DNA of 35,420 nt, from the UHGV virus genome UHGV-0075595; one strand, given 5' to 3'. Positions within the stretch are counted from its first letter, which is position 1. The number at the start of each line of letters is the position of its first letter. This document shows positions 1-23,571 of this stretch, in pieces. The stretch comes from a virus. The notes beneath the pieces are model-generated. The model was not told where the DNA came from. It worked only from the letters and a program-made list of their open reading frames with translations, and did no database searches. The position numbers were made by a program, and so were the translations under genes.

Positions 1-49
1 TTCTTCCAAATGATTTTCACCGTACCGTTTTATATACCGTCACCGGAAA

Positions 50-547
50 TCAGTGCCACGATTTTTGCTTCTTCAGTGAATCGTATTGCTGTTCGCAGGA
101 TTCTCCTGCAATCCGATACTTTTCAGCCTCAGCTGCTGTTGCGTTGTAAACTCGGTTGCTTTCTTCAAGCATGTCGGCGAGCACACCGATGACCTTGCTG
201 GCTGGCGTGCCAGTGGGGAAAGATCCGGTATAGTGTTCGGCGAGTCGCTTGGTTTTGTCAAGCTCGGCGCGCAGGCTGTCAGCAGCGGCATTAGCATGCT
301 CAGCATCAACACGCGCCACATCGATACGGGACTGTGCTTCACGTTCAATTTGTGTTTTCTCCTGATCACGTTGTGACCTGGCCTTATCATCAGCCTGTTT
401 CTGATCTTCCTGTGCCTGCGCATACCCGGCGTCGTACTGACGACTGCCGTGTGCATTCCAGGCTACAACTCCTGATATGACCAGAACAGCAAGCATCGCC
501 ATGATAACCAACTGTTTCCAGTATGCTTTTGCGAATGCCCAGATCAT
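50..547 (-). CDS. Rz-like i-spanin (N-terminal TM anchor, charged coiled-coil periplasmic domain)
   Basis: 165 aa; N-terminal hydrophobic segment then Q/E/R/A-rich helix; start overlaps endolysin stop; last gene of lysis cassette. Confidence 0.6.
   Translation of the reverse strand: MIWAFAKAYWKQLVIMAMLAVLVISGVVAWNAHGSRQYDAGYAQAQEDQKQADDKARSQRDQEKTQIEREAQSRIDVARVDAEHANAAADSLRAELDKTKRLAEHYTGSFPTGTPASKVIGVLADMLEESNRVYNATAAEAEKYRIAGESCEQQYDSLKKQKSWH
73..321 (-). CDS. Rz1-like o-spanin lipoprotein embedded in +1 frame of Rz
   Basis: Embedded ORF with lipobox-like signal MLSMLMPLLTAC followed by Pro-rich mature region; exact start uncertain (M at 321, 306 or 297). Confidence 0.4.
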   Translation of the reverse strand: MWRVLMLSMLMPLLTACAPSLTKPSDSPNTIPDLSPLARQPARSSVCSPTCLKKATEFTTQQQLRLKSIGLQENPANSNTIH

Positions 548-1173
548 ACCGCCAGCACCTTACTGGCAGTGATGTACCGCGCGCGCCGGTCGTCGATGCC
601 GTTCCGGCCACCATTGATAATCAGAGTTACACGTGCAATATCGCCGGTATACTTCATGCATCCTTTGCTGGCAAAGAACCACGCCGCGCTACGAGCCGCG
701 TATTCGTCCTGCGCCAGCAGTTCAGGACTCTCCAGCAGGTCAACCTTAAGACCGTTTCCACAGTCACGATAGTTATTCAAACCGGTAATCTGGATAAGTC
801 CGCGACCACGGTAATTCCAGCCATCACCAGAGGCATTGTTACCCATGCGTTTGCTGTACACCAGATTTGCGATCGCGCGCTGGCGCTCAAGTGGCAATGG
901 TGGCTCACCAGCACGGCGGCCCAGTGCGTTAGCCTGTCCCTGGGTGAGACGCCCAGCCCGAACGAAGTTAGCCAGTCCGGTGACGCTGTAGTTGAAATTT
1001 TCCTGCAACCGGTTGAAGCCACCAGACTCATGCCCGACCTGAGCAATAAACATTGCCTGATCTTCGGGTTTGCTGATACCAAACTCTTTCATCGCAGAAG
1101 TTATATGCGAGAACCAGCGAGCGGCCAGCGCCTCGCTAATACCAGCAGCTCGCTGGAATTGTTTAATCTCCAT
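544..1173 (-). CDS. Endolysin, glycoside hydrolase family 19 (chitinase-like lysozyme)
   Basis: Motifs QVGHESGGF and NYRGRGLIQITG typical of GH19 endolysins; start chosen at internal ATG (MEIKQFQ...) preceded by GAGGT RBS. Confidence 0.75.
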   Translation of the reverse strand: MEIKQFQRAAGISEALAARWFSHITSAMKEFGISKPEDQAMFIAQVGHESGGFNRLQENFNYSVTGLANFVRAGRLTQGQANALGRRAGEPPLPLERQRAIANLVYSKRMGNNASGDGWNYRGRGLIQITGLNNYRDCGNGLKVDLLESPELLAQDEYAARSAAWFFASKGCMKYTGDIARVTLIINGGRNGIDDRRARYITASKVLAV

Positions 1174-1471
1174 GTTTAGACCTCGATATTTTGAAAATAT
1201 GAACAACGTTACCGCGTGTTTTAATAACCGCGGCAAGCATGACAGCGTTGATAATGACCTCAGATAAATCCACAGCCATTGGCGTGCGTAACCAGATTGC
1301 ATAGACGACACGAACAGGAATACTTGCCGCAGCAACAATAAGGAAATAAGCAAGCCACCCTCCCCATCTTCGATGTTGAGAGCCGTTACGCCGGAATGTG
1401 ACAACGCGAATTGCTATGCCAGTACAAATAACTGCATTGGTGATAAGCAAAAAAAACTCATGCGTTACCAT
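1163..1471 (-). CDS. Lysis-cassette membrane protein (holin/antiholin-like, about 3 predicted TM segments)
   Basis: 102 aa, three hydrophobic stretches; overlaps neighbours by a few codons; sits between holin-like gene and endolysin. Confidence 0.45.
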   Translation of the reverse strand: MVTHEFFLLITNAVICTGIAIRVVTFRRNGSQHRRWGGWLAYFLIVAAASIPVRVVYAIWLRTPMAVDLSEVIINAVMLAAVIKTRGNVVHIFKISRSKHGD

Positions 1472-1862
1472 CGTCTTTTCTCCCCGGAATTAACTCGCGT
1501 GGATTATCGGAACGGTGATAGAGCCAGATGCCAATACGCACGGCGACAATTGCTGACACGAATGCGCCTGCAGAGAAAACAATCCCTTTTTCAAAAGAGT
1601 CCTGCGTGATGGTAGGGATCAGGCTGGCTATGCCGATAAGAATTGATGCTGCTGGTTTGTAAAAGAGAAGGCCGCAAAGAAAGCTGAGCATCGACAGGAG
1701 CACCCGGCGACGGATGGGGTACTCTACTGCAGAGGTAACAAAAATTACCGCCCCAGCCAAAGCCCCTAAAGCAACCTCCGGAGGGACACCTGCAATAACC
1801 GCAGCAAGAGAACTAACACTAAGCCACTGATTTGAAGTTTCATTGGTTAGTTGGAATGACAT
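1458..1862 (-). CDS. Holin-like membrane protein (3 TM, charged C-terminal tail)
   Basis: 134 aa; three hydrophobic helices and C-terminal HRSDNPRELIPGRKDDGNA; first gene after tailspike. Confidence 0.5.
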   Translation of the reverse strand: MSFQLTNETSNQWLSVSSLAAVIAGVPPEVALGALAGAVIFVTSAVEYPIRRRVLLSMLSFLCGLLFYKPAASILIGIASLIPTITQDSFEKGIVFSAGAFVSAIVAVRIGIWLYHRSDNPRELIPGRKDDGNA

Positions 1863-1934
1863 AACGAAACCCGTTTATTTGCAAACACCCTGCTTCAGGA
1901 AAAGTATACCGCGCAACAACACACCATTTACGGT

Positions 1935-4397
1935 TCAATTCCCTGTTAATTGCAAAACTTGCTCTTCCAGCTTTTTAACCCTGCGTCTCATCATCGCAGA
2001 TTCCAGAATCAGAGCCTCTTCATAACGGATACCGTAACATTCACCAGCCTCGACGGCTTCGCGTACCAGAACCTTTGTCTGTATAAGTGGGTAAACTCCT
2101 GCAGAATGCTCTTCTTCCGTCACATCCCTGTATTCTGCCGGGGTCTCATTCCACTTGTCATAACAGATAAATGCCAGTCGTGACACATCTATGCCTTCAT
2201 TCTGAAATACACTGATAACATGCTGCGCAACTGCACCAAAGTGCCATCTTGCTCCGTCTTTACCTTTCACTTCGATCCTGTCAAGGTACTGGTATGAAAC
2301 CCATTCCACTCTTTCCCATGCGTCCAGTATTTTCTCATCAATAACCTCTGGAGCAGTCTTGAAACGCGCATCGGACAGCACCGTAAACGCTGACTGGGTA
2401 AATCCCCCCGACCATGCACGACCAGCCAACCCAAGAGAATAAGTATTCGTTGTCGATGGTGTCATGGCTGAATCAGAAAACTGTATATATTCTGAATTTC
2501 CAGTAGATATTCGAATATTTCCATTTATTAGCGACATAGTGCCTTTAGTATTATCACTATTGAATAATTTCAATTGCGAACTTATACCGCCTCCCACAGC
2601 CAGAGATACATCGCCTTCAGCAAGCATTCTGAATTTATCTGCAGAAACAAGCGTCTGGTTAGCAAGGTTAAAATATTTAACCCACCATTCAAAACGCCCT
2701 GACATAGTCCCAACGTACTGACCAAGCGCAGGGACGTGAACAACATTGCTATTTGTAGTGCCGTCTATACTGGAAATACCAGTCACCGCTGATGCAGAAC
2801 TCAGAATATTATTTCTGTCACCCGGATGTTTAATTTCAACAAAGTTCCTGATACACCCTTCCTCGAAGGTAACCACGCCGGAAGAACTATACATGGGGAA
2901 TATTGACGCATAATTACTGCGTGCAGCATCTAAGAAACGAATGGTTGTAGATGTCTGCAGATCTCCTGATTCATTTTTCCCATCACACCCAGTCATTAGA
3001 ATATTACTGGCAATATTATTATTTCCCTGAACGGTGACTCCGTGCGCCTGCTTTGCGTCCGATTCAGAGTAATCAACCAGCACATTCGAAATCAGGTTAC
3101 CAGTCCCCTTGCCAACAACTACTGCGGCGTATTTTGGGTTGTTAGCCATTACACTGCTAATGATATTATTCGTTGGGGCAGTTTCCGTCTCAGTTCCATT
3201 GTAAACAACGTGCTGACACTCTTCACCAATAACATTGCTGACAATGTTATATTTTGCTGCTGTTTTAAGTTCCACTGCACCAAACTGAGGATAATTTCTG
3301 GCTATCACACCATCAATTAGCGTATTTTGCGATGAATCAAAAAGCACACAACCTGCTTTTTTATTATTTGCGAACCCTAAATACTCTCCTCTTATATCTC
3401 TAACAATGTAACCTGACGGAATACCATTATTCGGATAAGCGATCAAGCTAAATCCTGTTCCTCGCGTATTTGTAAATCTGATATTTTTAACCGATACATC
3501 ATGGCCACCTGAAAATGACACCTGGTGTCCCTGCACACTATCATCTGATTTATTTCCCATAATTGTTAGCGTACTAAGCATGCCACCATCGGGCATGTTA
3601 AAAACCAGATGATTACCATCTCTGTCATACTGTTTTATCGTTCCCCCACCTGTTCCGTACAAGCCACAACGTGAAAGAGAAACTAAAGATGTATTGAATA
3701 CCCCTTCCGGAACAAAAACACTGCTAAACGAATGTAATGATTTTGTAAAAGCATCCTTGTTATCATTTAAGATTCCATTTTGAGCTCCAAAATCCTTAAT
3801 GCTGACACCATCACGCATCTTATCCTGGAACGTTCTGTATACCGCTCCAGAACCATACTGAATAAACCAACCAAAACCACCAATAACTCCGGCGATTGCA
3901 GCATCGACATAATTACGCATTGAGCGATTATTTACAGCGTCCTGCTCAAGTGATGGATCGGCAAGGTTAGATATTCTGTTTTGCTTTGCATCGTAATATT
4001 TTGCAAGCAAAGATGGTTTCATCAATGCACGTCTGAACCACCCAAAACATCGCTGGATCAGCATCGTCAGGTAGTCAAATGCATCCTCATGAACTTCGGG
4101 GAAAAATTTTCCCTGATTGCGAAGATCAGTCTCCTGCACCACATCAAGCACACGCTCTATCGTGATTCGCCAGCCAGCAGCAAGCGGCGACGGAAGAACC
4201 ACTGCACCGCCACTATAAGTTCCCGCCCCTGTTACCGTATAACCAGCATCCAGCACTAGTTTTGTAACGTTACCGTTAAGGTCAGACACCTGAACAACCA
4301 GGTCGGATTTTTTGAAAATACGGAAGGTATACGGAAATGATGTCGTAACGCCGTTACCTGTGTATTCGTTGTGGTCAACTTCGGTTGAGACCGTCAT
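1935..4397 (-). CDS. Tailspike / tail fiber with N-terminal particle-binding domain, central right-handed beta-helix (depolymerase-like) and C-terminal intramolecular chaperone (peptidase S74-like) domain
   Basis: 820 aa; N-terminal YTGNGVTTSFPYTF motif; central repetitive N/G/S/V-rich beta-helix-like region; C-terminal LSDARFKTAPEV...WHFGAVAQHV...ICYDKW motif; GGAGA RBS. Confidence 0.85.
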   Translation of the reverse strand: MTVSTEVDHNEYTGNGVTTSFPYTFRIFKKSDLVVQVSDLNGNVTKLVLDAGYTVTGAGTYSGGAVVLPSPLAAGWRITIERVLDVVQETDLRNQGKFFPEVHEDAFDYLTMLIQRCFGWFRRALMKPSLLAKYYDAKQNRISNLADPSLEQDAVNNRSMRNYVDAAIAGVIGGFGWFIQYGSGAVYRTFQDKMRDGVSIKDFGAQNGILNDNKDAFTKSLHSFSSVFVPEGVFNTSLVSLSRCGLYGTGGGTIKQYDRDGNHLVFNMPDGGMLSTLTIMGNKSDDSVQGHQVSFSGGHDVSVKNIRFTNTRGTGFSLIAYPNNGIPSGYIVRDIRGEYLGFANNKKAGCVLFDSSQNTLIDGVIARNYPQFGAVELKTAAKYNIVSNVIGEECQHVVYNGTETETAPTNNIISSVMANNPKYAAVVVGKGTGNLISNVLVDYSESDAKQAHGVTVQGNNNIASNILMTGCDGKNESGDLQTSTTIRFLDAARSNYASIFPMYSSSGVVTFEEGCIRNFVEIKHPGDRNNILSSASAVTGISSIDGTTNSNVVHVPALGQYVGTMSGRFEWWVKYFNLANQTLVSADKFRMLAEGDVSLAVGGGISSQLKLFNSDNTKGTMSLINGNIRISTGNSEYIQFSDSAMTPSTTNTYSLGLAGRAWSGGFTQSAFTVLSDARFKTAPEVIDEKILDAWERVEWVSYQYLDRIEVKGKDGARWHFGAVAQHVISVFQNEGIDVSRLAFICYDKWNETPAEYRDVTEEEHSAGVYPLIQTKVLVREAVEAGECYGIRYEEALILESAMMRRRVKKLEEQVLQLTGN

Positions 4398-4501
4398 GTT
4401 AAATCTCCAGATAGTCGCAGCACCCGTTGCGCCGCATATCTGGTTATTCTATTACCCAAAAAACCATATATGGATAGAAAGACTGTGAATATGAATAGAT
4501 A

Positions 4502-4516
4502 TTACCTTTCAGGTAA
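4502..4516. promoter_or_regulatory. Operator-like palindrome TTACCTTTCAGGTAA (member of ATTACC-N5-GGTAAT family)
   Basis: Perfect inverted half-sites; identical 17-mer TATTACCTTTCAGGTAA also at 23570..23586; lies between divergent tailspike and SOS-gene starts. Confidence 0.55.
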
Positions 4517-4555
4517 TTTGCAAAACGTGCTGGATAGCAAACAAATTATTTGCTA

Positions 4556-4571
4556 CTGTATAAATATACAG
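4556..4571 (+). promoter_or_regulatory. LexA (SOS) box CTGTATAAATATACAG overlapping a -10-like TATAAAT
   Basis: Exact CTGT-N8-ACAG with AT-rich centre, extended TACTGTATAAATATACAGTT; 23 bp upstream of ATG at 4594. Confidence 0.6.
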
Positions 4572-4593
4572 TTATTGCATGGAGAAGATTAAG

Positions 4594-4851
4594 ATGCAGC
4601 AGTATCACTATCCACTGGAAGAGGGATTTACCGAAAGGATTCACACGCCGGGAGGCGTCAGGTCACTGGTGGAGGGATCGCACTTGATGAAATTACTCCG
4701 GGATCTCGATAAGGATGGATTTAATGTCGATGGCCCACTTGCCGAACTGACTGCACTGATTAACTACGTCACCAGCTCACAGATGTCTATGCAGGATCTG
4801 CAAACACATCTCGACTATTGTGCCGAACAATTACGAAAACAAACCAGATAA
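4594..4851 (+). CDS. Small protein (85 aa) paralogous to the C-terminal domain of the downstream AntA-domain antirepressor; putative SOS-induced immunity modulator
   Basis: GGAGAAG RBS 6 nt upstream of ATG; shares a colinear motif series with the C-terminus of ORF 5169..5825 (IH-[ST]P-[GS]GV ... LM-LL ... DG-V-G ... ELT ... [DI]LQTH--Y); LexA box in its promoter. Confidence 0.55.
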   Translation: MQQYHYPLEEGFTERIHTPGGVRSLVEGSHLMKLLRDLDKDGFNVDGPLAELTALINYVTSSQMSMQDLQTHLDYCAEQLRKQTR

Positions 4852-4854
4852 GGT

Positions 4855-4897
4855 TTGAAATTACCAAATGGAGTGCTTATATTTACCTTTGCGGTAA
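4855..4897 (+). promoter_or_regulatory. Sigma70-like promoter (TTGAAA-17-TATATT) with operator TTACCTTTGCGGTAA overlapping -10/+1
   Basis: -35 at 4855..4860, -10 at 4878..4883, palindrome 4883..4897 with extended arms ATTTACC/GGTAAAT. Confidence 0.5.
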
Positions 4898-4924
4898 ATT
4901 TACATCGCACTCCTCTTGTGCCAT

Positions 4925-5010
4925 AGTAATCGGGCACTGGCAAAATCCAGTGCCGGGATTGGTCTCCCGGATTACTAAGTGGCGCATACCACGCCAGACG
5001 TGGTTTTTTT
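4925..5010 (+). ncRNA. Candidate structured leader / small RNA upstream of the antirepressor gene (nested hairpins ending in an intrinsic terminator)
   Basis: Hairpin GCACTGG-N6-CCAGTGC (4934..4953), CCGGGA-N6-TCCCGG (4953..4970), outer pairing AGTAATCGGG/CCCGGATTACT, then terminator; track ORF here starts with TTG and has no RBS. Confidence 0.3.
4988..5010 (+). terminator. Rho-independent terminator (ACCACG-ccaga-CGTGGT followed by T7)
   Basis: 6-bp GC-rich stem, 5-nt loop, T-run; sits between promoter at 4855 and antirepressor ATG at 5169. Confidence 0.55.
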
Positions 5011-5168
5011 ATGCGTATAGCACAGTCATGCCAGAATTATGGTGGGCTGAATGGGGGTCCGAAAGGACGCCGGTACCACTTAGGCCGGTAAGACCAACTC
5101 CGTTCAGTTCACCACCATCTGATTGGTCTCAGCGGTGGTGATGTAATTCGCTAAGTGGAGACGCCATC

Positions 5169-5825
5169 ATGAACGCTCAACTCATCCCCGTATTCAACGG
5201 CACTATATCTAACGAAACAGCCCTACTTTGTAATGCCCGCGATCTGCACGCTTTTTTAGGTGTTAAAAAGGTGTTTGCAGCATGGATTACAAATCGCATA
5301 TCAGAATACGAATTCATTGAAAATCAAGACTATATTTTGCTTTCCAATTTGGGAAAGCAAACATCTGGTAGAGGCGGCCACAACCGCAAAGAGTACCACC
5401 TCACCCTTGATACAGCCAAAGAGCTGGCGATGGTCGAGCGTAACGAAAAAGGTCGCCAGGTGCGACGCTACTTCATTGAATGCGAGAAACGTTTAAGACA
5501 ACAAGAAACAAAAGTGGAGAAGGTCTTGTCAGGCTTCATGCCCGCCATTATGGAGGCGATCAAGCTGGAAGACAAAAAAGAATACAGTGCCCCACTGAAG
5601 CCCGGCTACCGCAGCCTGATTCACTCGCCGTCTGGTGTTCTCGGCCTGACGGAGAACTCACTGCTGATGAATCTGCTGAACCAGTTACAGGACGACGGGC
5701 ACGACGTATCGGGCGCGGCGGCGGAGCTGACCACCATGTTCTGCTACATCGTTGGTGTGAGCAAATGCCTGCGTGATATCCAGACGCACGCGGAGTACAT
5801 CAACGACAAGGCAGGGTTCTTCTGA
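5169..5825 (+). CDS. Antirepressor, AntA-domain N-terminus plus C-terminal domain shared with ORF 4594..4851
   Basis: 218 aa; N-terminal LIPVFNG...[10 protein letters not shown]...[22 protein letters not shown]...[33 protein letters not shown] matches AntA-type antirepressor domain as recalled; GGAG RBS. Confidence 0.65.
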
Positions 5826-5869
5826 CGGGCGGCGGCACAGGGATGTGCCTTTAAATAATTCTGTACAGA

Positions 5870-5912
5870 TTGCAGACTGGGGGTGAATAGCGTACTATTA
5901 CCTCAAGGGTAA
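5870..5912 (+). promoter_or_regulatory. Sigma70-like promoter (TTGCAG-17-TACTAT) with operator TTACCTCAAGGGTAA overlapping -10/+1
   Basis: -35 5870..5875, -10 5893..5898, palindrome 5898..5912; same promoter-operator architecture as 4855..4897 and 29857..29899. Confidence 0.5.
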
Positions 5913-5971
5913 GAAAGCATTTTTAATCTTCCCTTCAAAACGCGTCCTGTAGCCAAACATGGGAGGACGAA

Positions 5972-6604
5972 ATGAGAACAAATACAACAAGAAAAGCGAT
6001 GCCATACATTATCCCAGAAGCAGATTTCGATAGAAAACTGAACATGTCTGAGAAGAACACTAGTCACACCGAAAGCTACTTAGCGAAAGGTGTGGTTGAT
6101 TTCGTTCTTCCGGGATTCACAACACCTTATGGTTATCGCCTTGTAAAATCTTGTAATGGCGATCATTACAGAATGATTACTACCAGCGATACTCCAGAAA
6201 CGGTGTATGCGGTTAAGTTAATCTTTCGGGAAGATATCGTCGAAGCCAAAAGAACATGTACGCAGATCATGGTATGGCGTACGCCTAATGTTATTCATGA
6301 CCGTGCTGTTCATGGTTTGCCTCAGATTTTTTTTCAGTTCTTCCTAGAGCAATATGCGATCGTTGTATCTGATGAGCAACAAACAATCGATGGGAGAAGA
6401 TTCTGGGAAAGAATGATTTCTTGGGCTATAAACACCCCAGGATATAATGTATACGTTTCAGATGGCTCTGAAGAAGATAGACCTCTTAGCTTCATGACAT
6501 CATGGGATGATTTCTATAGCCAGTGGGCTGATTTCTGTTGGGGCAGTGATAAAGATGTGCATACCCACAGACTACTGGTTATAAGCAAAGATAAACTGCA
6601 TTAA
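5972..6604 (+). CDS. Hypothetical protein (210 aa), cargo gene of unknown function in the immunity-like island
   Basis: Strong GGGAGG RBS 5 nt upstream; own operator-controlled promoter and own terminator; no family recognised. Confidence 0.6.
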   Translation: MRTNTTRKAMPYIIPEADFDRKLNMSEKNTSHTESYLAKGVVDFVLPGFTTPYGYRLVKSCNGDHYRMITTSDTPETVYAVKLIFREDIVEAKRTCTQIMVWRTPNVIHDRAVHGLPQIFFQFFLEQYAIVVSDEQQTIDGRRFWERMISWAINTPGYNVYVSDGSEEDRPLSFMTSWDDFYSQWADFCWGSDKDVHTHRLLVISKDKLH

Positions 6605-6609
6605 TAGAA

Positions 6610-6630
6610 GCCCGCAGCGCGGGCTTTTTT
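6610..6630 (+). terminator. Rho-independent terminator (GCCCGC-agc-GCGGGC followed by T6)
   Basis: Perfect GC stem immediately after stop of 5972..6604. Confidence 0.7.
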
Positions 6631-6702
6631 GTGGACGAAACAAAAGTCAGTGCTACACTCATTGACGCCACATTGAGGTGGCTTATAGATGGAAATTTCA
6701 CA

Positions 6703-6864
6703 ATGAAAAAAGCATTTGCTGCACTGTTCGTTTTGTTGTCTCTGGTAGCTTCAACTCAGGCCTTTGCCGGTCGTTGTCAGCACGACAGCGACACTGCTGC
6801 TGACGGCTCCCGCTGCGGTGGGCGTTCTGCGGATTCCCGCCCGGGTGGCGGTGGCATTCGTTAA
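6703..6864 (+). CDS. Candidate small secreted peptide (53 aa; signal peptide MKKAFAALFVLLSLVASTQAFA then Gly/Arg/Asp-rich 31-aa region with two Cys)
   Basis: In-frame ATG inside track ORF 6631..6864; possible promoter TTGACG-16-TATAGA at 6662..6689; weak RBS, so uncertain. Confidence 0.25.
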   Translation: MKKAFAALFVLLSLVASTQAFAGRCQHDSDTAADGSRCGGRSADSRPGGGGIR

Positions 6865-6886
6865 AAACAAGGCCGCGAAAGCGGCC
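6862..6886 (-). terminator. Rho-independent terminator of the late operon on the minus strand (GGCCGC-tttc-GCGGCC then TTGTTTTT)
   Basis: Hairpin 6871..6886 with T-rich tract on minus strand, 10 nt downstream of lipoprotein stop. Confidence 0.55.
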
Positions 6887-6895
6887 TGTGACATG

Positions 6896-7276
6896 TCACG
6901 CAACGCAATTATTACCGCGCCATGTAACATTTTTAATAATCTTATCAGCACCAAACTCAACGTAAACAGAGCAACTGAAATGGAGTGTATAACCGCCATC
7001 AGTTGTTGCGTATGTGTTTGAATATATAGTATTACCAATTAGATTAGACGTAGTATTATACGTTGTGGTTTGTGGTACGTTATAACTACCAGAGCTTGAG
7101 TAAACATACACTCTGTTTCCATCTGGAGATGTAAGCTCTCCCTGAGGATACCCCCACTGCTGAACCATTGCGTCTATACTCTGCCCGCGCCACGTAAGCA
7201 TATTTCTTTCAAACTGTGCAGCTGACTGGCATCCAACGAGAAGCATAAATCCAAAAATCAAAAATACTTTTCTCAT
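6896..7276 (-). CDS. Lipoprotein (predicted), last gene of late operon; possible superinfection-exclusion/surface protein
   Basis: Start at internal ATG giving MRKVFLIFGFMLLVGC lipobox signal; AGGGGT RBS; mature part T/S/N/Y-rich. Confidence 0.55.
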   Translation of the reverse strand: MRKVFLIFGFMLLVGCQSAAQFERNMLTWRGQSIDAMVQQWGYPQGELTSPDGNRVYVYSSSGSYNVPQTTTYNTTSNLIGNTIYSNTYATTDGGYTLHFSCSVYVEFGADKIIKNVTWRGNNCVA

Positions 7277-7323
7277 AATTACCCCTATCATGGAAAAACA
7301 GCACCAATCCACAAATTAACTAG

Positions 7324-7512
7324 TTATTTTATTATTCTTCCGAACAATACAATTCCGAATACTACAAAGCCGAACCATGCCGCTGCACGCAACAGAGATT
7401 CCAATTGAAACCCATTTTTATCAAAATGTATGAATAGCATAAAAACGCTGCACATATTAGTACAATAAAAGTTATTTGAACCATCATATCTCCTTTTATT
7501 GCGGAGTGACAT
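7324..7512 (-). CDS. Small hypothetical membrane protein
   Basis: 62 aa with C-terminal hydrophobic helix; weak RBS, overlaps end of upstream gene. Confidence 0.25.
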   Translation of the reverse strand: MSLRNKRRYDGSNNFYCTNMCSVFMLFIHFDKNGFQLESLLRAAAWFGFVVFGIVLFGRIIK

Positions 7513-9970
7513 CCTGTGGTCGCCACCAGTATGTCTGGTTAAACTCTTTCTTCGAACGTTGCTCCATTTTACGCAAATAGCCTGGTGAAAAATACTCCTG
7601 CATCTGGTTAAAGATCATGTGATCGAGAGCCGCCTTCAAGTACCAGAGATTCGCACCAGGCATCAAACCTTTCCCCAGCTTCACCAGATCACCACCAGTC
7701 TGCTCACTCTTCCCTTCCACAGCATTTAACGGTATGCCCTGAGCAATCTTCACTACGTCATCAACCAGACCAGCTACCGGGCCAAGCATCGACGCCAGCG
7801 CGCCGCTTCCGTACCTAGTGTGATCTGACAATAAAAAGTCACCGTAAAGGCCAAGACCACCACCTTTCAGTAGAGCACCAAGCCAAAATTTAGCAGCATC
7901 TTCTCCTGTCATCTCGCGAGGATTACGACCAGACGCAAGGTCGTTAAGTTGCTGCGACAAAGCGCCAAGAATGGTCGTACTGGCAATAAACGTCGCAATA
8001 TATGCCGCACGCCCACCAGCAGACGGCATACCCATAGCGCGTGACCAGTGACGCATAACCACCGAGATAGGGAACGATTTAAACAGGAAAACACTTCTCG
8101 TTAATTCACCTTTCCATGTTCCACGCTGAATACCAGAACCGGTTATCAGTTGCTCACGTGCTCCCGGTGTAATAACAGCCATATCAACTTCTTCAGTTAC
8201 GGCACCGAGCAGTTTACGCATTGCCTCAAATTTCACGCGTTCAGGCTCACCAAGATGTTTAACTGCTGAATCAGGGATACGCATAATGCTTTCCGGTGTC
8301 AGCATCGTATTATTGCCGTTCCCCCAGTCCTCCTGTTGCGCCAGCTTCCATACGCTCCAGTCTGTGTCAGTAATCCCTTTGCTTTTCAGGATACGAAAAT
8401 CAGAATCATCGAGGCTACGAAGGTCTGGTGTCCGTGACACTACTTCTCCCAAGCTTCCCATCATGGTTACGCCATAGGCGCGCTTGTGCGCATCTGACCA
8501 TGCTGTAAGCCCACTGGCACGCATTACCGCCGTTGCAGCCCAACGAGACACAGACGGCCCCATATTATCCATCGCCCAGCGGTTAACGCTGCCAAGTAGA
8601 GATTCCATCGCCAGACCAGCGCGGCGCGCCCGCGCAAGTTCTGTACGGTTCGTTGGGTCCATAGCTTCAAGCTGGTTGCGGAATAACTGGTTCATTGGAA
8701 GGTTGGTAACCTTCGCAGACAGATACATGGTTCCAAGATCAGAGAACGATGACAGCAACGCGGATCCGAGTCTGCTGGCAACCAGCCAGTTGCGGATATT
8801 GTCAGACCATCGCGCGATGTGCGGATTCGCTACAGGCTGTGTCTTTCCGGAAATAAAGTTGTACAGATTCTCTGTGTTGTTCGCCAGCCGCTCGACTTTA
8901 CCGGTTTTACTCGGGTTAGCTGTTGCCGTTTCTGCCTTCACCTGATCAAGAAGAGAGCGGAAAACATGATCGGGGTTTGGGCCATATGTTTCCACCAGTG
9001 CAATATCTTTACTGATACCTTCCAGGTGACCGACCATGATTTCCCATAGAGAGCGATCGCCATAAAGTTGCTGATATTGAAGATAGGAATCTGCATCTTT
9101 GAAATGTATCTGTCGTGATGCATTACCACGGTTAGCACGTGCGCCGGAAATTCGCATTCCGGTATCAGTAAGCTTATTCAACCCACCAGTAGCGATCGTG
9201 TTATAAGCCTCTCCAAGAAATGCAGACAACTCGGCATCGTTCATCAGTTGTCCATCGGCTCGGGTATAATATTTGCGATCCAGCTTACCTATAACATCGC
9301 TAACCCATTTATCTTTTGATACCGCCCCAACCTTTTCCATAGAATGATGTTGAGGGATCCCCCAGTTTTCGAGATAGCCAATGTCCCCACCAGCATCATT
9401 AAACCGGCGGCGCAGCAGCTCTGTAACTTCTCTCCACGCCTTAGCACCTTTTCTTGCTTTAGCATTGCCAGTATTTTGCCCCCGCATTTCATATACCAGG
9501 TCACGTACGCCAGCTTCATCTTCAAACAGACCAAAAAAGCGAGGATCAACTGCTTCGAATGCCTCCTGCAATTGACTCAATGCATAATCACGGGTGGCTT
9601 TTGTTCTGGATTCAACAGAGAGGAAATTCGATTTACCGTCTGCATTAAAAGCAATAGTACGGTTAAGAGCGCCAAGTTTCCCATCAGCCCCTTGATAGCT
9701 ATTGATAAATTTATCCAATCTCTGACGTGCGGCTATAGTGAGGGCCACACGACGTTTCTTTAATGCCGCTTCTCGCTGTAATTCTTCAGATGCCAATTGT
9801 GCTGCACGATATAGCCGCTCTGATTCGGAAAGTTGTCTCCACGACATCGGGTCATCACGAGCAATAGAGCGCATATTTCGATAAATGCGGTCTTCAATGT
9901 TCTGTATTTCTCGCGCCGTTAACGTGCGCTGCGCCGCCTGCTGGACCGCTTGTATACATTCCTGTCTCAT
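7496..9970 (-). CDS. Large internal virion / ejection protein (824 aa)
   Basis: Position in late operon after tail genes, analogous to T7 gp15/gp16 core proteins; no catalytic motif recognised. Confidence 0.55.
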   Translation of the reverse strand: MRQECIQAVQQAAQRTLTAREIQNIEDRIYRNMRSIARDDPMSWRQLSESERLYRAAQLASEELQREAALKKRRVALTIAARQRLDKFINSYQGADGKLGALNRTIAFNADGKSNFLSVESRTKATRDYALSQLQEAFEAVDPRFFGLFEDEAGVRDLVYEMRGQNTGNAKARKGAKAWREVTELLRRRFNDAGGDIGYLENWGIPQHHSMEKVGAVSKDKWVSDVIGKLDRKYYTRADGQLMNDAELSAFLGEAYNTIATGGLNKLTDTGMRISGARANRGNASRQIHFKDADSYLQYQQLYGDRSLWEIMVGHLEGISKDIALVETYGPNPDHVFRSLLDQVKAETATANPSKTGKVERLANNTENLYNFISGKTQPVANPHIARWSDNIRNWLVASRLGSALLSSFSDLGTMYLSAKVTNLPMNQLFRNQLEAMDPTNRTELARARRAGLAMESLLGSVNRWAMDNMGPSVSRWAATAVMRASGLTAWSDAHKRAYGVTMMGSLGEVVSRTPDLRSLDDSDFRILKSKGITDTDWSVWKLAQQEDWGNGNNTMLTPESIMRIPDSAVKHLGEPERVKFEAMRKLLGAVTEEVDMAVITPGAREQLITGSGIQRGTWKGELTRSVFLFKSFPISVVMRHWSRAMGMPSAGGRAAYIATFIASTTILGALSQQLNDLASGRNPREMTGEDAAKFWLGALLKGGGLGLYGDFLLSDHTRYGSGALASMLGPVAGLVDDVVKIAQGIPLNAVEGKSEQTGGDLVKLGKGLMPGANLWYLKAALDHMIFNQMQEYFSPGYLRKMEQRSKKEFNQTYWWRPQDVTPQ

Positions 9971-9975
9971 TTAAT

Positions 9976-14288: not shown

Positions 14289-14300
14289 CTTATTATCCCC

Positions 14301-14840
14301 TTATCGACCGGTTGGAGTGCCAACAGCAGCAGAAATCGGCGCAGCCTTCTGAGAGAACGGGCTCCACGTTCCTCCGCCCATCTGGTATGCACCGTATGCT
14401 TTTAGTGGTGCCGTTAACAAAGTGCTGGTCATCGATGATTTAGCAGCCGACTGAGCAGCAGCCCCCTGTGCCCGAGCATTCATTCCCTGAACCTGATACC
14501 CATATGCCTCACGCTGAGCGTTATTCACTGTCGTTAACGCATCAAGAGTGCCGAACTGAGCATTATCCGCAAAAACGTCAAGAGCTGTTCCGCTACTTAA
14601 TTCCGCACCGGTAGCCCCCATAGTGGCCGCCGCAGTGCCTGAGCGTTGACGCATTTCACGACGACGCTGATCCGCTTCAATATTCCCACGATTGATTGAA
14701 TCCTGTGCCTGAGCTTCAGCAATTTCAGCATTCCGATCAGCTATGGCTGACTGGTATTTTGCCTGCTTGCTCTGGCTGTACATTGACGCGGCTGTGGATG
14801 CCACTGTGACGGCAACCAAAGCGATGGCTGGGTTACACAT
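14301..14840 (-). CDS. Internal virion protein (T7 gp14-like position; N-terminal TM helix, Ala/Gln-rich)
   Basis: 179 aa, N-terminal hydrophobic segment, low complexity; gene-order analogy. Confidence 0.45.
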   Translation of the reverse strand: MCNPAIALVAVTVASTAASMYSQSKQAKYQSAIADRNAEIAEAQAQDSINRGNIEADQRRREMRQRSGTAAATMGATGAELSSGTALDVFADNAQFGTLDALTTVNNAQREAYGYQVQGMNARAQGAAAQSAAKSSMTSTLLTAPLKAYGAYQMGGGTWSPFSQKAAPISAAVGTPTGR

Positions 14841-18703: not shown

Positions 18704-18719
18704 ATACACTCCTGCAATA

Positions 18720-18737: not shown

Positions 18738-18753
18738 GTCTGATCCGCGAGGC

Positions 18754-19098: not shown

Positions 19099-19099
19099 C

Positions 19100-19537
19100 T
19101 TAACCAGTTACTTTTGAGCGGATCGGATACGGCGTATTGGCATCAACATCAAGATTGATACCCGCAGTGAATTTGCCAGCCGTTAGTGGGCCAGTTGCGA
19201 CGGAGTAGTTAACACGCAGATATCGCTGAACACCGGCTGGCACCTTTGCAGAAACAACTCGCTTACCTGCTGTCAGGGTGGCCTTTGCCAGTGCGCCACT
19301 ATCATAAATAGTGGACCATGAGCTGTTATCCTCACTCGTCTGCAACTGGATGTTTACAGTTGCATCACCGCTTGCTGCGGCGGCTGTGTTAACCAGCGCC
19401 CAAAACTCAAGCGGGTAACCCACGCCGATATCACGACGTTTTCCGTCAATTGGACCGAGATCGATTACGTCAGTAGAAGCCGCGGTATCAGTTACCGCCT
19501 GTGCTTCGGAGAACATCAACAGTTTGTCGGTGATCAT
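19100..19537 (-). CDS. Putative capsid decoration / head-associated protein
   Basis: 145 aa, beta-rich T/S/A/G composition; immediately downstream of major capsid gene. Confidence 0.4.
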   Translation of the reverse strand: MITDKLLMFSEAQAVTDTAASTDVIDLGPIDGKRRDIGVGYPLEFWALVNTAAAASGDATVNIQLQTSEDNSSWSTIYDSGALAKATLTAGKRVVSAKVPAGVQRYLRVNYSVATGPLTAGKFTAGINLDVDANTPYPIRSKVTG

Positions 19538-19552
19538 CTTCTTTCTCCATTA

Positions 19553-19572
19553 GTGGGTCTGTTACGACCCAC
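19553..19572 (-). other. RNA stem-loop immediately downstream of major capsid gene (GUGGGUC-N6-GACCCAC)
   Basis: 7-bp perfect stem in 51-nt gap between capsid stop (19589) and next start (19537); no U-tract. Confidence 0.4.
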
Positions 19573-19588
19573 AGGTTAATAACAGGCG

Positions 19589-20581
19589 TTACACCACGCG
19601 GGCTTCTGTTTCCAGAAGCGCATCAGTTTCACGGATTGGTACACCACGGAATGAAGTCCACCACTCGCCTTCTGTCTCTTTTACGCTGATCGCCAGAGAT
19701 GTTTTCTCCAGAGACTGCAAATCAAGAGCCTGGCCTACAGTGCGGTTCATGTAGAACACCGGGCGCCCCATGCCACGGTTCGGAATGCGATGCAGTGCTT
19801 TAACCATCAACTTCGCAATATTTGCGGCAGAGGAAGGTTCTGAAAGATTGCTGACATCGATGTTTGCAATGCGAACAACATAACGCCAGTCACGCAGAGC
19901 AAGTCCGTTGTCCCATTTGTAATGGGTACGGTAGCCTTCGTACTTGCCGCCATTCGCATCTTCCAGTGTCACCTGGCCTTTATCTTCCATCTGGATGCCA
20001 GCCTTCTTCCCTTTCGGGAAGATGCCATGCACGGTGTTTTCGCCCCACACTACTAACCAGATTGAGGTGTTATCTGTACCCGTGCCACCAGCATCAATGA
20101 TGTTCTGAGCATTACCCGCAGACAGGCTGGAATAGCGGGAGGACAGTCCCATAAACTGCTGAGGGTTAACGCTGGAATCACCATAAAACAGCGTCTGCGC
20201 CATCTGCTGATTCATCGCTTCAATAAATGCGCGGTCTTCAGACAGGCGGAATTCGGCGGTATTGCCGTTCAGATCAGCCAGTGACTTATCGACTTCAGCA
20301 TAGGTTTCCAGCATGCCCACGGAATCGGTTACCTGCACTGTGGTTGATTTGCTTGGCTGTACGCCATAGTTCAGCAAACGCCAGGTAGCTGAAGGTAAAC
20401 CAGAACGAATGGTGGTTCGGTGTCCGGTAGGAAGGTTCCCTTCGACAAAAGGCATATCCTGAAGGATCGGGTTAGTTTGACCGAGAAGCTCGATAATCTT
20501 ATCGACTTTCCCGTTTGGATCGACGCGCTTACCCCAGTCAGCCAGCGTCAGCGCAGTTAAGCCTTTAACAGCCATTGTCAT
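19589..20581 (-). CDS. Major capsid protein
   Basis: 330 aa; follows scaffold-like gene and portal; family not verified. Confidence 0.65.
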   Translation of the reverse strand: MTMAVKGLTALTLADWGKRVDPNGKVDKIIELLGQTNPILQDMPFVEGNLPTGHRTTIRSGLPSATWRLLNYGVQPSKSTTVQVTDSVGMLETYAEVDKSLADLNGNTAEFRLSEDRAFIEAMNQQMAQTLFYGDSSVNPQQFMGLSSRYSSLSAGNAQNIIDAGGTGTDNTSIWLVVWGENTVHGIFPKGKKAGIQMEDKGQVTLEDANGGKYEGYRTHYKWDNGLALRDWRYVVRIANIDVSNLSEPSSAANIAKLMVKALHRIPNRGMGRPVFYMNRTVGQALDLQSLEKTSLAISVKETEGEWWTSFRGVPIRETDALLETEARVV

Positions 20582-20589
20582 TTCCTCTC

Positions 20590-21291
20590 TTATTTGCCAT
20601 AGAGCACTTCGGCCGCACTACGCTGGCCTTCATTACCACCGGTGACCATGCCATCTTCAGACATCGCCTTTCCGATTTTCACGAACGTTTTGACCAGATC
20701 AGGGTGATTACCCAGTCCGGTGGTGTTCAGATATTCTTTGAGCTCGGGTGTCCCGAACTGGTCAAGCGCACGCTGTGCGGCGCTAAGGTTAGAAATCAAC
20801 TTGTCGCCACCAATTTCTTTGTCAGCTTTTACATCAGCAGCCCACTGCTCGGTTGTTTTCTGCCAGGCTTCTGCCTGGCGCTGCTGCACACCTGCCAGAA
20901 TCTTCGGATAAGCATCAACCAGCTTTTGCGCTTGCTCGTTGGTCAGGTTTAGTTCTCGCGCCACCGGCTCGAATTCCTTCAACGCTTCTGTATCCAGCTC
21001 TACGCCTTCGGCAGCCTGAAACTCGTACTTTTCAGGCGCACCCTCTGGTTTATCGCCGTCCTTTTTTTCATCCTGCTTATCGTTTTCAGGCTTTTTGTCA
21101 TCAGCAGGTTTATCGCCATCAGCAACAGGTTGTGGCTTATCACCTTCCTGTTGTGATGGATCACCAACTGGAGCAGGGTTATCACCTGCAGGCGCTGACG
21201 GTTCTGACGCAGCCGGAGCTGCTCCACCATCGACTGGTTGCTCATTGCAAAGACGGCGATACAGCAAACGCTCAAATAAATTCATGATCAC
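20590..21291 (-). CDS. Scaffolding protein (acidic, low-complexity P/D/K/E-rich N-terminal half)
   Basis: 233 aa; composition and position between portal and capsid. Confidence 0.55.
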   Translation of the reverse strand: MIMNLFERLLYRRLCNEQPVDGGAAPAASEPSAPAGDNPAPVGDPSQQEGDKPQPVADGDKPADDKKPENDKQDEKKDGDKPEGAPEKYEFQAAEGVELDTEALKEFEPVARELNLTNEQAQKLVDAYPKILAGVQQRQAEAWQKTTEQWAADVKADKEIGGDKLISNLSAAQRALDQFGTPELKEYLNTTGLGNHPDLVKTFVKIGKAMSEDGMVTGGNEGQRSAAEVLYGK

Positions 21292-21584
21292 TCCTGTTCA
21301 CTGGCCTCTTTGGCCATCTTCAAATACTGTTCAGGGCAATGCGCCATAACGCGCTGAAACAGTTCCAGCGCCAGATTGCGTTGCCCCTCATTAAATGCCA
21401 TTGCCATAGCGTCCATCGGTGAGATAGCGGAAAACACACGGCCTTTCTCCAGCACCGACCAGACAACGCGACGCCCCTGTTCACTGCTCATGACAAAGCG
21501 AATGTCATCAATTTCACGCTGTGCCATGTCACGTTGCTTACGGGCGTTTTCTTCTTTCAGTTGATCGTCTTCGTAATCTGTCAT
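21288..21584 (-). CDS. Hypothetical head-assembly protein
   Basis: 98 aa, charged; overlaps portal stop and scaffold start. Confidence 0.4.
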   Translation of the reverse strand: MTDYEDDQLKEENARKQRDMAQREIDDIRFVMSSEQGRRVVWSVLEKGRVFSAISPMDAMAMAFNEGQRNLALELFQRVMAHCPEQYLKMAKEASEQE

Positions 21585-23260
21585 TGTGATTGCCCACCCT
21601 GACCACTAACTGCATTCGCCATAGCTGAAAACACACTCGGATCCGAAGTTTTAGCTTCGCTTAGCGTCTTGGCCCCCTGTGCCGCCGCCATCCCCATCGC
21701 CATCATTTGTTGCTGCTGTTGTTGCTGTGCCCGTTGCTGGCGAGCCTGCTCAACCTGTTCCTGCGGAACAATGACGGTTGGAGACACTCCGGACATATCA
21801 GCGAATGCATCGATCGCCTGATCAACGTTGAGTTTGTCGAGAGCTTCTGGTTTCGCTTGCGCAAGTTGACCAATGAAGTTGACCGTAGACGCCAGACTGG
21901 ACAGGCCGATAGACTTCTGCGCCTGAGCCATGACGGAAATGTATTCGACCTTCAGGGGCATACCTTCCATCGCGTCAGGCGGTGGCGGCAGCATGTTTTT
22001 ACGCACCATCATCGAGAAAGCGCGGTCAATGAGAGGATTAAGACATTCGTCGTTCAGACGCTCCAGAACCGGCCCCAACATCAGAAGTTTTTCTTCTTTC
22101 ATTTCGATCACTGCTTCAACAGGCATCGAGCGGGTATTGATGTTCTGCAACATCATGAACAGATCGACAAAGTAGGCGCTGTTAATGATTTGACGAGTGT
22201 CCTGAATGTCTGCCACCAAATCTGCTGTACTGGGGTTAACCAGATAAGCAGGCCTGAAACCATCCTGACCAGTAATCTGATCGATATACGTGATGTCGCC
22301 AGGAAGAAGGGAGGCACGCTGATTCTTGAGGGAAGTCGGAGCAACCATCGGCGGATTGGTGGCTTTATCAATCAACTGCGACTTGCGCTTCTGGAGAAGC
22401 TGCAATGCCTTAACAGGTCCAAGCGCCAGCATACCCGGGCATGATGATCCATAAACATCTTCGCCATTAACTTCCCAGCGCGGAGCCATAATTGGAAACT
22501 CATCAAATCCGGACTCACGCAACAACTTGTCGTTATCGCCACCAACCTCGTAATAAACCGATTTGAATGGCTTGTTCTTGCTATCCAGCTTCGATGTATC
22601 GCGGTCAATGTTCGGGTAAACCGAATGCATCACGTCAATCCACTTCTCGTAGGTGCCGCTTTCCCACATGCTTTTTACGGATTCGCTGACGTTATTTAGC
22701 CCGAACTCCTGAACAAGCTGACGAACAGTCATAGAGAACTTGCGAAAACAGGTGTCCACACTGCCACGAGGTGAGTTAGCCAGGTAGTAACTGCCTATCG
22801 GGAATGGCATTGTGCGAATGATGTCCTCGTCATCCTCCAGCACCGCCATTGCACCAGTGCTGTATGTGCCGAGGCTTCCGTATAACTGCGGAAGAGACTG
22901 GTAGAGATTCGACTTATTGAACATATCGTTCATGCGGTTCTGCACCGCCTCGAGCCACAACTTAACAGGACCATAATCCATCATTTCAGGATCTGGCGTA
23001 GCCAGGCGAAACCACGGACGCGCAGGGCTTGTGATGCCTGACATCATGCCGCTGGCGAGAGTGCGCGCCGCCATAGTCCCGGTCGAATCAATAATGCGTG
23101 TATTGCGTCGATCGTTACGGTTGACCTCAGAAGTCAGAAAGCGGGAACCACGCGGGTTGATGTAATCACTCAACTCGCGCCAGTGCGGCTCGAACGACTG
23201 ACGCTCGCTTTCAAGTTGTGCGAACTGTTTGTTCAATCGCTCTTTAGTTGTTTCCGCCAT
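21581..23260 (-). CDS. Portal (head-to-tail connector) protein, T7 gp8-like
   Basis: 559 aa; C-terminal QQRAQQQQQQQMMAMGMAAAQGA tail resembles T7 gp8 C-terminus; GGAG RBS. Confidence 0.75.
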   Translation of the reverse strand: MAETTKERLNKQFAQLESERQSFEPHWRELSDYINPRGSRFLTSEVNRNDRRNTRIIDSTGTMAARTLASGMMSGITSPARPWFRLATPDPEMMDYGPVKLWLEAVQNRMNDMFNKSNLYQSLPQLYGSLGTYSTGAMAVLEDDEDIIRTMPFPIGSYYLANSPRGSVDTCFRKFSMTVRQLVQEFGLNNVSESVKSMWESGTYEKWIDVMHSVYPNIDRDTSKLDSKNKPFKSVYYEVGGDNDKLLRESGFDEFPIMAPRWEVNGEDVYGSSCPGMLALGPVKALQLLQKRKSQLIDKATNPPMVAPTSLKNQRASLLPGDITYIDQITGQDGFRPAYLVNPSTADLVADIQDTRQIINSAYFVDLFMMLQNINTRSMPVEAVIEMKEEKLLMLGPVLERLNDECLNPLIDRAFSMMVRKNMLPPPPDAMEGMPLKVEYISVMAQAQKSIGLSSLASTVNFIGQLAQAKPEALDKLNVDQAIDAFADMSGVSPTVIVPQEQVEQARQQRAQQQQQQQMMAMGMAAAQGAKTLSEAKTSDPSVFSAMANAVSGQGGQSQ

Positions 23261-23274
23261 TTCAATGACTCCGG

Positions 23275-23481
23275 TTACTGACCAAGCAGCGTTTTACCGC
23301 TGGTATTAGCGGTTGATGTGTCGCCCTGAGAACCGGTAAGCAGCGTAGAACTACGACCAGCAGCAGCGCGACGGCGACGAGTTTCTTCGTCGCGGGCATC
23401 AACAACGGCGGCATCCTGCTCCTGTGGTGCTGCCTGAACTTCTGGTGTTGCAGGCACTGATGGTGAGCTACCCATGCACAT
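23275..23481 (-). CDS. Small acidic/Ser-rich hypothetical protein, first gene of late operon
   Basis: 68 aa; translation-initiation region GGAGTCATTGATATG nearly identical to that of portal (GGAGTCATTGAAATG). Confidence 0.45.
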   Translation of the reverse strand: MCMGSSPSVPATPEVQAAPQEQDAAVVDARDEETRRRRAAAGRSSTLLTGSQGDTSTANTSGKTLLGQ

Positions 23482-23571
23482 ATCAATGACTCCGTACGCA
23501 ATTAAATTATTACCAATTTAACCACATATGATTTATTTATCGTAGAAGGTTGACATTTAACGCGTGAATTA

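Follow-up and report, generated by a model that had tools for sequence, protein, structure and literature searches.

Evidence for a terminase-deleted, probably defective Uetakevirus prophage with partly T7-related virion proteins

The DNA analysed here is the 35,420-nucleotide (nt) sequence of UHGV virus genome UHGV-0075595, taken whole and read on one strand ("the window", to which all positions refer unless a relative is named). Its minus strand holds the whole morphogenesis series of a phage, from a gene for a 68-amino-acid (aa) protein at 23481 through Rz, ending at 50 (open reading frame (ORF) table), with an opposite-strand island interrupting the late module, and with a tRNA-Arg gene, an early region and an integrase gene at higher coordinates (Table 1). 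The complete structural set of Salmonella phage epsilon15 (gp3-gp17, gp20, gp23, holin, endolysin, and Rz) has one-to-one colinear orthologues in the window (BLASTP, E-values from 1e-18 to 0). An original prediction, made from the DNA letters alone, had listed a small protein, portal, scaffold, capsid, gp11-like and gp12-like proteins, small and giant internal proteins, a tail fiber, holin and Rz/Rz1; both the ORF table and the epsilon15 orthologues bear out this order and these sizes, although the list was simplified, since it overlooked three extra head genes, a glycoside hydrolase family 19 (GH19) endolysin, and the plus-strand island at 4579-6864, and gave the name scaffold to what is a candidate scaffold or protease. 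The element is very probably the interior of a Uetakevirus (epsilon15/PhiV10-type) prophage inserted in the E. coli chromosome at the 3' end of guaA, in a copy that has lost its terminase genes and is defective.

The identity of the element was established by comparison with a phage collection. Megablast returned matches of 96.6-98.5% identity over 63-85% of each window half to phiv142-3, HEMP4, PhiV10, O157 typing phages 9 and 10, PAS61, and ZX5, and more remote nucleotide matches to Enterobacter phage Tyrion (82%) and epsilon15 (76%). The record of phiv142-3, which carries Uetakevirus in its taxonomy line, is 97.8% identical to window 1-24000 over 82% of it and 97.9% identical to the remainder over 78%; the whole-genome comparison with temperate podoviruses suggested by the original prediction thus yields a Uetakevirus match at 97-98% identity over ~80% of the window. 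With phiv142-3, PhiV10, vB_EcoP_PAS61, vB_EcoP_ZX5, and HEMP4 the window shares the gene order of both arms, the tRNA-Arg, the integrase, and, judging from its siblings, probably the guaA attachment site. Unlike the window, the phiv142-3/PhiV10 group has, in the interval from the Ea22/DUF551 genes to the tRNA, terS and terL as well as a 112-aa regulator and complete nin-like genes, and phiv142-3 further differs in the receptor-binding part of the tailspike and in parts of the antirepressor island. Orthologues in epsilon15, the type species and a model system for cryo-EM, are 28-90% identical (gp20 at the N-terminus only; capsid proteins only ~40%), and epsilon15 has the same operator palindrome, described below, whereas its map begins with terS-terL and it carries O-antigen conversion genes and a different tailspike body. 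Prophages of this type are common: 518 of 5,426 complete E. coli genomes, about one in ten, match a 3-kb piece around the portal gene at at least 80% coverage. Low-identity matches to 64 Synechococcus phage records in the phage collection are presumably due to the tRNA-Arg gene only.

A terminase is missing from this otherwise familiar genome. Searched in any frame with TerL and TerS of phiv142-3, the window gave a best tblastn E-value of 0.26; all six of its ORFs of at least 500 aa are structural, leaving no ORF for a single-subunit RNA polymerase, the regulators of the early region are of host type, and no N or Q homologue was found among the early-region proteins scanned (Pfam, PHROG), in agreement with the absence of terminase, RNA polymerase, and Q-like genes noted originally. 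In five of five intact relatives (epsilon15, phiv142-3, EC.W1-9, AR_0086, and GCA_012983475.1), terS-terL stand directly upstream of the portal operon, in the order accessory genes, terS, terL, a reverse Gp49-family gene where present, tRNA-Arg where present (the epsilon15 record annotates none), 68-aa gene, and portal. These terminases were confirmed independently, TerS as PF03592 (Terminase_2) and TerL as phrog_2. The window and phiv142-3 are colinear except in one place, where window positions 24050 and 24803 align to phiv142-3 24134 and 28112, respectively, and terL (24386-25861) and terS (25858-26451) of phiv142-3 lie inside the interval missing from the window. Measured against the closest intact relative (L005), in which colinearity jumps from 15301 to 11160, the deletion spans 4,140 bp. 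Matches to all Uetakevirus records break off at window 24050, and Ea22/DUF551 DNA of other phages matches from 24051. One break falls inside the DUF551 gene (251 aa in sibling L006) and the other 65 bp from the tRNA, with no microhomology at the breakpoints in the alignments (...GAATGGGCTG/TTCAAGGGAAACC...). The DUF551 C-terminus, a NinX-like gene, the 112-aa phrog_536 regulator, terS, terL, and the Gp49-family gene were removed, a 159-aa fusion ORF was created, and all genes outside the deletion are intact.

The location of the missing genes also bears on where the element ends. The original prediction, following T7, had expected the terminase downstream of Rz, outside the window on its left side, in what would then be an intact phage; T7 does have terS (gp18) and terL (gp19) flanking Rz at the end of its late region, and because the window stops 49 bp past Rz, its sequence alone would be compatible with such an order. 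For phage ZX5, ATTGAGTGGGAATGATT has been reported as the attP core of the attachment (att) site; it lies 190 bp away from the integrase gene, and attB is located at the 3' end of guaA (PMC9782041). This core is not inside the window. Window 1-14397 is, however, 99.965% identical to a prophage in a complete chromosome, in which the core lies 88 bp after the Rz stop (39-55 bp outside window position 1), with the host genes yfgI, yfgH, yfgG, pdeF, ppx, and ppk coming next; Rz is likewise followed by host genes in eight complete chromosomes. On the right side, the siblings have the core at the end of guaA, 141 bp outside the window, and in L005 the integrase gene adjoins the 3' end of guaA. The phiv142-3 record starts and ends with the core, and in this circular phage just 210 bp including it separate the two window ends. 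These positions indicate that the window is the whole prophage interior, with nothing phage-encoded to the left of position 1, and the terminase genes of the relatives lie elsewhere and in a different order, upstream of the portal, exactly at the deletion junction of the window. A T7-like terminase position is thereby refuted on the prediction's own terms and left with next to no probability. A circularly permuted complete phage genome was also considered and ruled out: the att core and ~210 bp are missing between the ends, and the terminase segment is missing internally.

Two other readings concern the deletion itself. The missing 4.1 kb could be an assembly artefact concealing an intact prophage, as the junction occurs only in ENA metagenome (MEGAHIT-style) contigs: the exact fusion protein was found in four of these, 50-200 kb each, and neither IMG/VR, JGI metagenomes, GTDB representatives, the phage collection, nor the 5,426 complete E. 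coli genomes contained the junction 33-mer. Against this, the junction protein is identical in four separate contigs, and contig k119_25431 equals the window over 20.5 kb save for a 24-nt indel in the initiator gene, so that at least two different assemblies share the junction; no repeat or microhomology is present that could mislead a de Bruijn assembler, and the flanks are colinear and in the same orientation within one prophage. We consider an artefact improbable, and the deletion is rare, probably recent, and lineage-specific. The terminase-less copy could instead have been selected as a functional helper-dependent (satellite-like) or domesticated element, or as a producer of DNA-free particles, which would make it the first such derivative of an epsilon15-type podovirus. 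Its other genes, integrase included, are intact and differ very little from their counterparts in active phages, and the operator and head operon were precisely spared, but a recent deletion would leave flanking genes intact as well. One end of the deletion falls within a gene and makes an 18-codon out-of-frame tail, with no designed-looking boundaries; the junction is very rare, the putative regulator was lost as well, and neither a helper nor any pac or cos adaptation is apparent. This makes a selected element very improbable.

We thus retain the reading of a known kind of prophage in a decayed copy, whose only peculiarity is an ordinary deletion. In intact relatives, terS-terL make up the first of the late operons, immediately upstream of that of the portal, and an illegitimate deletion that took both genes together with the adjacent small regulator would make DNA cutting and packaging impossible; loss of the terS-proximal operator and of the 112-aa protein may also alter the late programme. 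As judged from its gene content, the copy is most likely defective. Several points weigh against parts of this interpretation. A co-resident phage might supply terminase; the four junction contigs, all from ENA metagenomes, may come from related samples; that the repressor binds the operator palindromes is predicted in the annotation of epsilon15; and homology to T7 gp15/gp16 was not reproduced here for the three large internal proteins, resting instead on a published comparison of hidden Markov models (HMM-HMM) for epsilon15 gp17. In prophage annotation, this copy should be scored as defective, and a terminase missing from such a window should be read first as a deletion, by way of its relatives, and not as T7 gene order.

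Table 1 Features of the 35,420-nt window.
Feature	Position	Strand	Basis or remark
Rz i-spanin, 165 aa	50-547	-	PF10721 E 2.5e-23; phrog_312 1.2e-52; 50% identical to epsilon15 Rz
Rz1 o-spanin lipoprotein, out-of-frame within Rz (MLSMLMPLLTAC...)	73-306	-	lipobox LLTAC in frame translation
Endolysin, GH19 type, 209 aa	544-1173	-	phrog_181 2.8e-91; 84% identical to epsilon15 endolysin
Holin, 102 aa	1163-1471	-	PF05449 Phage_holin_3_7 E 2.8e-27
Holin-like membrane protein (epsilon15 gp23), 134 aa	1458-1862	-	PF16931 E 5e-12; 90% identity to gp23
Tailspike, 820 aa	1935-4397	-	phrog_14895 and phrog_1171 tail spike
Palindrome upstream of tailspike gene	starts 4502		
Opposite-strand island interrupting late module	4579-6864	+	90-aa ORF, isrK, C4, AntA, 210-aa and 77-aa ORFs; PHROG matches
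Palindromes (two) inside antirepressor island	start 4883, 5898		
isrK Hfq-binding small RNA	4934-5010	+	Rfam 67.7 bits
C4 antisense RNA	5035-5119	+	Rfam 61.2 bits
AntA antirepressor	5169-5825	+	PF08346 E 4e-26
138-aa ORF of unknown function, end of ejection-protein operon	6896-7312	-	phrog_3716 E 7e-64
824-aa internal/ejection protein, epsilon15 gp17 orthologue	7496-9970	-	gp17 published as homologue of T7 gp16 / IVP-D (D of the internal virion proteins, IVP)
600-aa internal protein, epsilon15 gp16 orthologue, candidate IVP-C	9976-11778	-	32% identity to gp16; phrog_1145
837-aa internal protein, muralytic domain at aa ~249-399, epsilon15 gp15 orthologue	11775-14288	-	58% identity
T7 gp14-family internal virion protein, 179 aa	14301-14840	-	PF24072 T7_gp14 E 4.6e-8, full length
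T7 gp13-like internal virion protein, 154 aa	14840-15304	-	phrog_308 E 9e-63
Tail nozzle (tubular tail protein B; T7 gp12 equivalent), 823 aa	15304-17775	-	88% identical to epsilon15 gp12
Head-to-tail adaptor (tubular tail protein A; T7 gp11 fold), 201 aa	17775-18380	-	AlphaFold and Foldseek
Capsid staple protein (epsilon15 gp10 family), 109 aa	18380-18709	-	PF21628 Gp10-like E 1e-51
gp9-like small head-region protein, 114 aa	18754-19098	-	phrog_590; 41% identical to epsilon15 gp9
Bbp16-family capsid cement protein, 145 aa	19100-19537	-	PF21190 E 4e-47
Major capsid protein, 330 aa, epsilon15 GP7 family	19589-20581	-	PF20911 E 3e-149
gp6-like 233-aa protein, candidate scaffold or protease	20590-21291	-	phrog_458 'protease' E 2e-111
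Bbp19-family small protein (epsilon15 gp5), 98 aa	21288-21584	-	PF25181 E 3e-17
Portal, 559 aa, T7 gp8 family, Q-rich C-terminus	21581-23260	-	PF12236 E 2e-187
68-aa protein (epsilon15 gp3), first gene of head operon	23275-23481	-	phrog_831; 88% identical to epsilon15 gp3
Palindrome ~90 nt upstream of head operon	23572-23586		
tRNA-Arg(TCT), antisense to late genes	23909-23985	+	ARAGORN; Rfam 73.3 bits; same strand by PGAP in sibling AR_0086
159-aa fusion ORF	23995-24474	-	141 N-terminal codons of 251-aa DUF551 gene and 18 unrelated codons
Junction of 4,140-bp deletion	24050-24051		colinearity with L005
Early region	24476-34111		Pfam/PHROG matches and precomputed Pfam matches on near-identical contig
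Palindromes (two) between P and next gene	start 26718, 26780		
cro-like gene	28796-29026	-	phrog_35; divergent from repressor gene
Palindrome between cro and repressor genes	starts 29111		
HTH_3 repressor, 194 aa	29181-29765	+	no recognisable S24 peptidase domain
Palindromes (two) after repressor gene, ahead of leftward operon	start 29823, 29885		
P4-type tyrosine integrase, 418 aa, intact	34114-35370	-	PF13356, PF22022, PF00589

The late module had been read as a T7-type podovirus layout, and that reading holds in part. On profile and model evidence, kinship with T7 extends, at family or fold level, to five proteins, namely the portal, adaptor, nozzle, gp13-like, and gp14-like proteins, and fails for the capsid, the putative scaffold, and the terminase families, as well as for the order of the lysis genes. 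None of the window structural proteins had a significant pairwise match to any T7 late protein (BLASTP, phmmer), and NCBIfam gave no informative match for ten of them. The profile searches against T7 families that the original prediction had proposed succeeded for the portal, gp13, and gp14, linked the adaptor by fold only and the nozzle by way of the marine phage Carin-1 and the Legionella phage LME-1, and failed for the capsid. The portal, with its QQQQQQQ tail (C-terminus ...QARQQRAQQQQQQQMM...), matches the T7 gp8 family phrog_449 at 8e-24, with T7 gp8 reciprocally matching the portal's phrog_332 at 1.5e-31, and the Carin-1 portal (PDB 8ck0) at E 2e-178. By contrast, the capsid belongs to phrog_212 and T7 gp10 to phrog_267, with no cross-match; the 233-aa gp6-like protein, whose N-terminal half is Pro/Asp/Lys-rich and of low complexity and which has no Pfam or NCBIfam family match, belongs to phrog_458 and the T7 scaffold (gp9) to phrog_1052; and the relatives' TerL (phrog_2) and TerS (PF03592) stand against phrog_38 and phrog_1351 in T7.

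Gene order shows a similar mixture. T7 (Autographiviridae) shares with the window the succession of portal, head genes, adaptor, nozzle, gp13, gp14, large internal proteins, and fibre, but it has a phage RNA polymerase, a DNA polymerase, and T7 promoters, none of which the window has, and it carries its terminase after the lysis genes, as opposed to upstream of the portal in the window's relatives. The lysis cassette of the window follows the lambda order, including an endolysin between holin and Rz, and not that of T7; the window is temperate, with its own integrase; and its head has the Bbp16 cement, gp9-like, and gp10 staple proteins encoded between capsid and adaptor, all three lacking in T7. 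The Bbp16 and Bbp19 families are common to the window and Bordetella phage BPP-1. Carin-1, LME-1, and BPP-1 differ from the window in host and early region and were compared at these proteins only.

The adaptor was linked to T7 through its predicted structure. Its AlphaFold model (predicted local distance difference test (pLDDT) 81.8) matched in Foldseek the Carin-1 connector (E 3e-16), the LME-1 adaptor (5e-10), the KP32 tail tubular protein A (1e-5), and T7 gp11 (7box_M; E 1.2e-6, template modelling (TM) score 0.57), whereas a sequence profile of 24 sequences against T7 gp11 was negative in hhalign, the fold search alone making the link. The adaptor also matches the connector of Carin-1 (PDB 8ck0/8ck1; E 4e-26) and the adaptor of LME-1 (9efk; 3.5e-5), a temperate element whose tail has been described as closely resembling that of T7 (PMC12407071). 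The nozzle matches the Carin-1 'Tail Nozzle' (8ck1_A) at E 6e-218 and the LME-1 nozzle (9efk_M) at E 1e-15, with no direct PHROG cross-match to T7 gp12; for epsilon15 gp12, Hardies and colleagues reported an HMM-HMM match to T7 gp12 at E < 1e-10 (PMC4819975). The 154-aa protein shares phrog_308 with T7 gp13 (the latter at 1e-42), and the 179-aa protein also has a weak match to phrog_805 of T7.

Evidence for the three large internal proteins is more uneven. The 837-aa protein matches the Gp29 N-terminus (PDB 9vvp_L, E 4e-38), the endolysin 7q47 (E 3e-17), and PHROG endolysin and transglycosylase families. Hardies and colleagues assigned epsilon15 gp17 as IVP-D and confirmed no IVP-C (PMC4819975). 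In the family profile of the 824-aa protein, a segment (aa 615-680) can be weakly aligned to T7 gp16 1092-1161 around a conserved FKSF(P/T)I motif (hhalign probability 3.9%, E 0.011), an alignment not significant alone that agrees with this published assignment. The 600-aa protein has no significant PDB match; many non-significant matches to alpha/beta hydrolases of the polyethylene terephthalate hydrolase (PETase)/cutinase type (E ~0.05-0.2) fall on its aa 18-134 and could hint at an esterase-like domain in the N-terminus of this ejection protein. That a T7-like module resides in a temperate genome has already been published for epsilon15 (PMC4819975, PMC8954989): a review describes a T7-like core stack (PMC8954989), the curated RefSeq record cites T7 tail tubular protein A for gp11, and the terminase and capsid of epsilon15 had been grouped with those of siphoviruses (PMC4819975). 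Terms on T7, nozzle, and terminase were not found in the text of a 2025 epsilon15 paper (PMC12391199), and no publication came up when the literature was searched for PDB code 8CK1.

By analogy with the structures of epsilon15, T7, Carin-1, and LME-1, a dodecameric gp8-family portal would carry a ring of gp11-fold adaptors, followed by a gp12-type hexameric nozzle with six tailspikes, on a head of epsilon15/BPP-1 type built from the GP7 capsid protein with staple and cement proteins. An internal core of the gp13-like, gp14-like, and three large ejection proteins would be expelled to form a trans-envelope channel, with the 837-aa protein possibly supplying the cell-wall hydrolase during ejection.

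The early region encodes Ead/Ea22, DUF7739, DUF1064, lambda-P (PF06992), and DnaT-like initiator proteins, together with a RecE-like nuclease, RecT, and Xis-like, PerC-like, MT-A70 methylase, and metallophosphatase proteins. Like the lambdoid phages (lambda, P22, 933W), the window has a divergent repressor/cro-like pair, lambda-P, Ead/Ea22, DUF551, and RecET-type recombination, and the NinX accessory gene and the holin-endolysin-Rz/Rz1 cassette of lambdoids are present in it or in its intact siblings. It differs in having no detected N or Q, a repressor without an S24 domain, operators dispersed ahead of late operons, and an initiator that is DnaT-like and not lambda O. The lambdoid and P4-like regulation, replication, and integration originally proposed is thus supported by the repressor/cro pair, lambda-P, RecE/RecT, and the P4-type integrase, but not as regards N/Q antitermination, in place of which repeated operator palindromes were found. 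In the DnaT-like initiator gene (27614-28429, minus strand), the 24-nt indel noted above makes a protein of 271 aa in the window, compared with 263 aa in the otherwise identical k119_25431. The integrase gene, intact in this terminase-deleted copy, is split into two ORFs in the phiv142-3 record (L001 37837-39086).

Following 'repressor' binding sites annotated in epsilon15 (NC_004775.2), we searched the window for the same motif. The palindrome TTACC-N5-GGTAA occurs in nine exact copies, against 0.03 expected by chance, and all nine are intergenic and ahead of operons. A tenth copy lies just upstream of terS in intact relatives, and among 17 loci compared T7 alone has no copy. The repressor is predicted to bind these palindromes, and direct repression of the late operons by the prophage repressor at them is likely. 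Repressor operators ahead of operons may explain the lack of Q: the host polymerase would transcribe the genome, and repressor on the palindromes would probably gate each operon instead of a Q antiterminator, until relieved by the AntA antirepressor. The dispersed palindrome offers a simple and testable account of late-gene control without Q. The isrK and C4 RNAs are encoded directly upstream of AntA, in an island between the tailspike and ejection-protein genes, an arrangement reminiscent of antirepressor control units of the P1/P7 immI or Gifsy kind. Intact relatives (L005 12195-12533; L017 39277-39615) have, immediately upstream of terS, a 112-aa phrog_536 'transcriptional regulator' (epsilon15 gp49) that occupies the position of lambda Q, within the segment deleted here.

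Between the tRNA and the 68-aa gene, an ORF-free spacer of ~425 nt (23482-23908) is 98-99% conserved among relatives. Besides the tRNA and the palindrome, no Rfam match and no sigma-70 consensus promoter was found in this spacer; the epsilon15 record annotates RNase III and integration host factor (IHF) sites in the equivalent region. The tRNA-Arg is annotated on the other strand and with only 69 nt in MN187550 (L001 23999-24067), which is probably an annotation error.

Sequence comparison indicates that the tailspike arose by a modular swap of the receptor part on a conserved N-terminal anchor. It consists of a conserved N-terminal virion-binding part, a swapped beta-helix receptor part, and a C-terminal S74 chaperone domain (PF13884, Peptidase_S74, at aa 675-735). 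Its first 165 aa alone match epsilon15 gp20, and window 1935-3815, the receptor-binding two-thirds of the protein, has no counterpart in phiv142-3 or epsilon15; a Beta_helix match (PF13229) was weak and sub-threshold (E 7e-4; 19.7 bits, the cut-off being 25.9). The identical 820-aa tailspike is present in 994 blocks of an assembly collection. In the lysis cassette, PF00182 was found on the endolysin gene of sibling L009, which also encodes 209 aa and lies in DNA with 99.965% identity to the window, and an Rz1 embedded in Rz, as in the window, is annotated in epsilon15.

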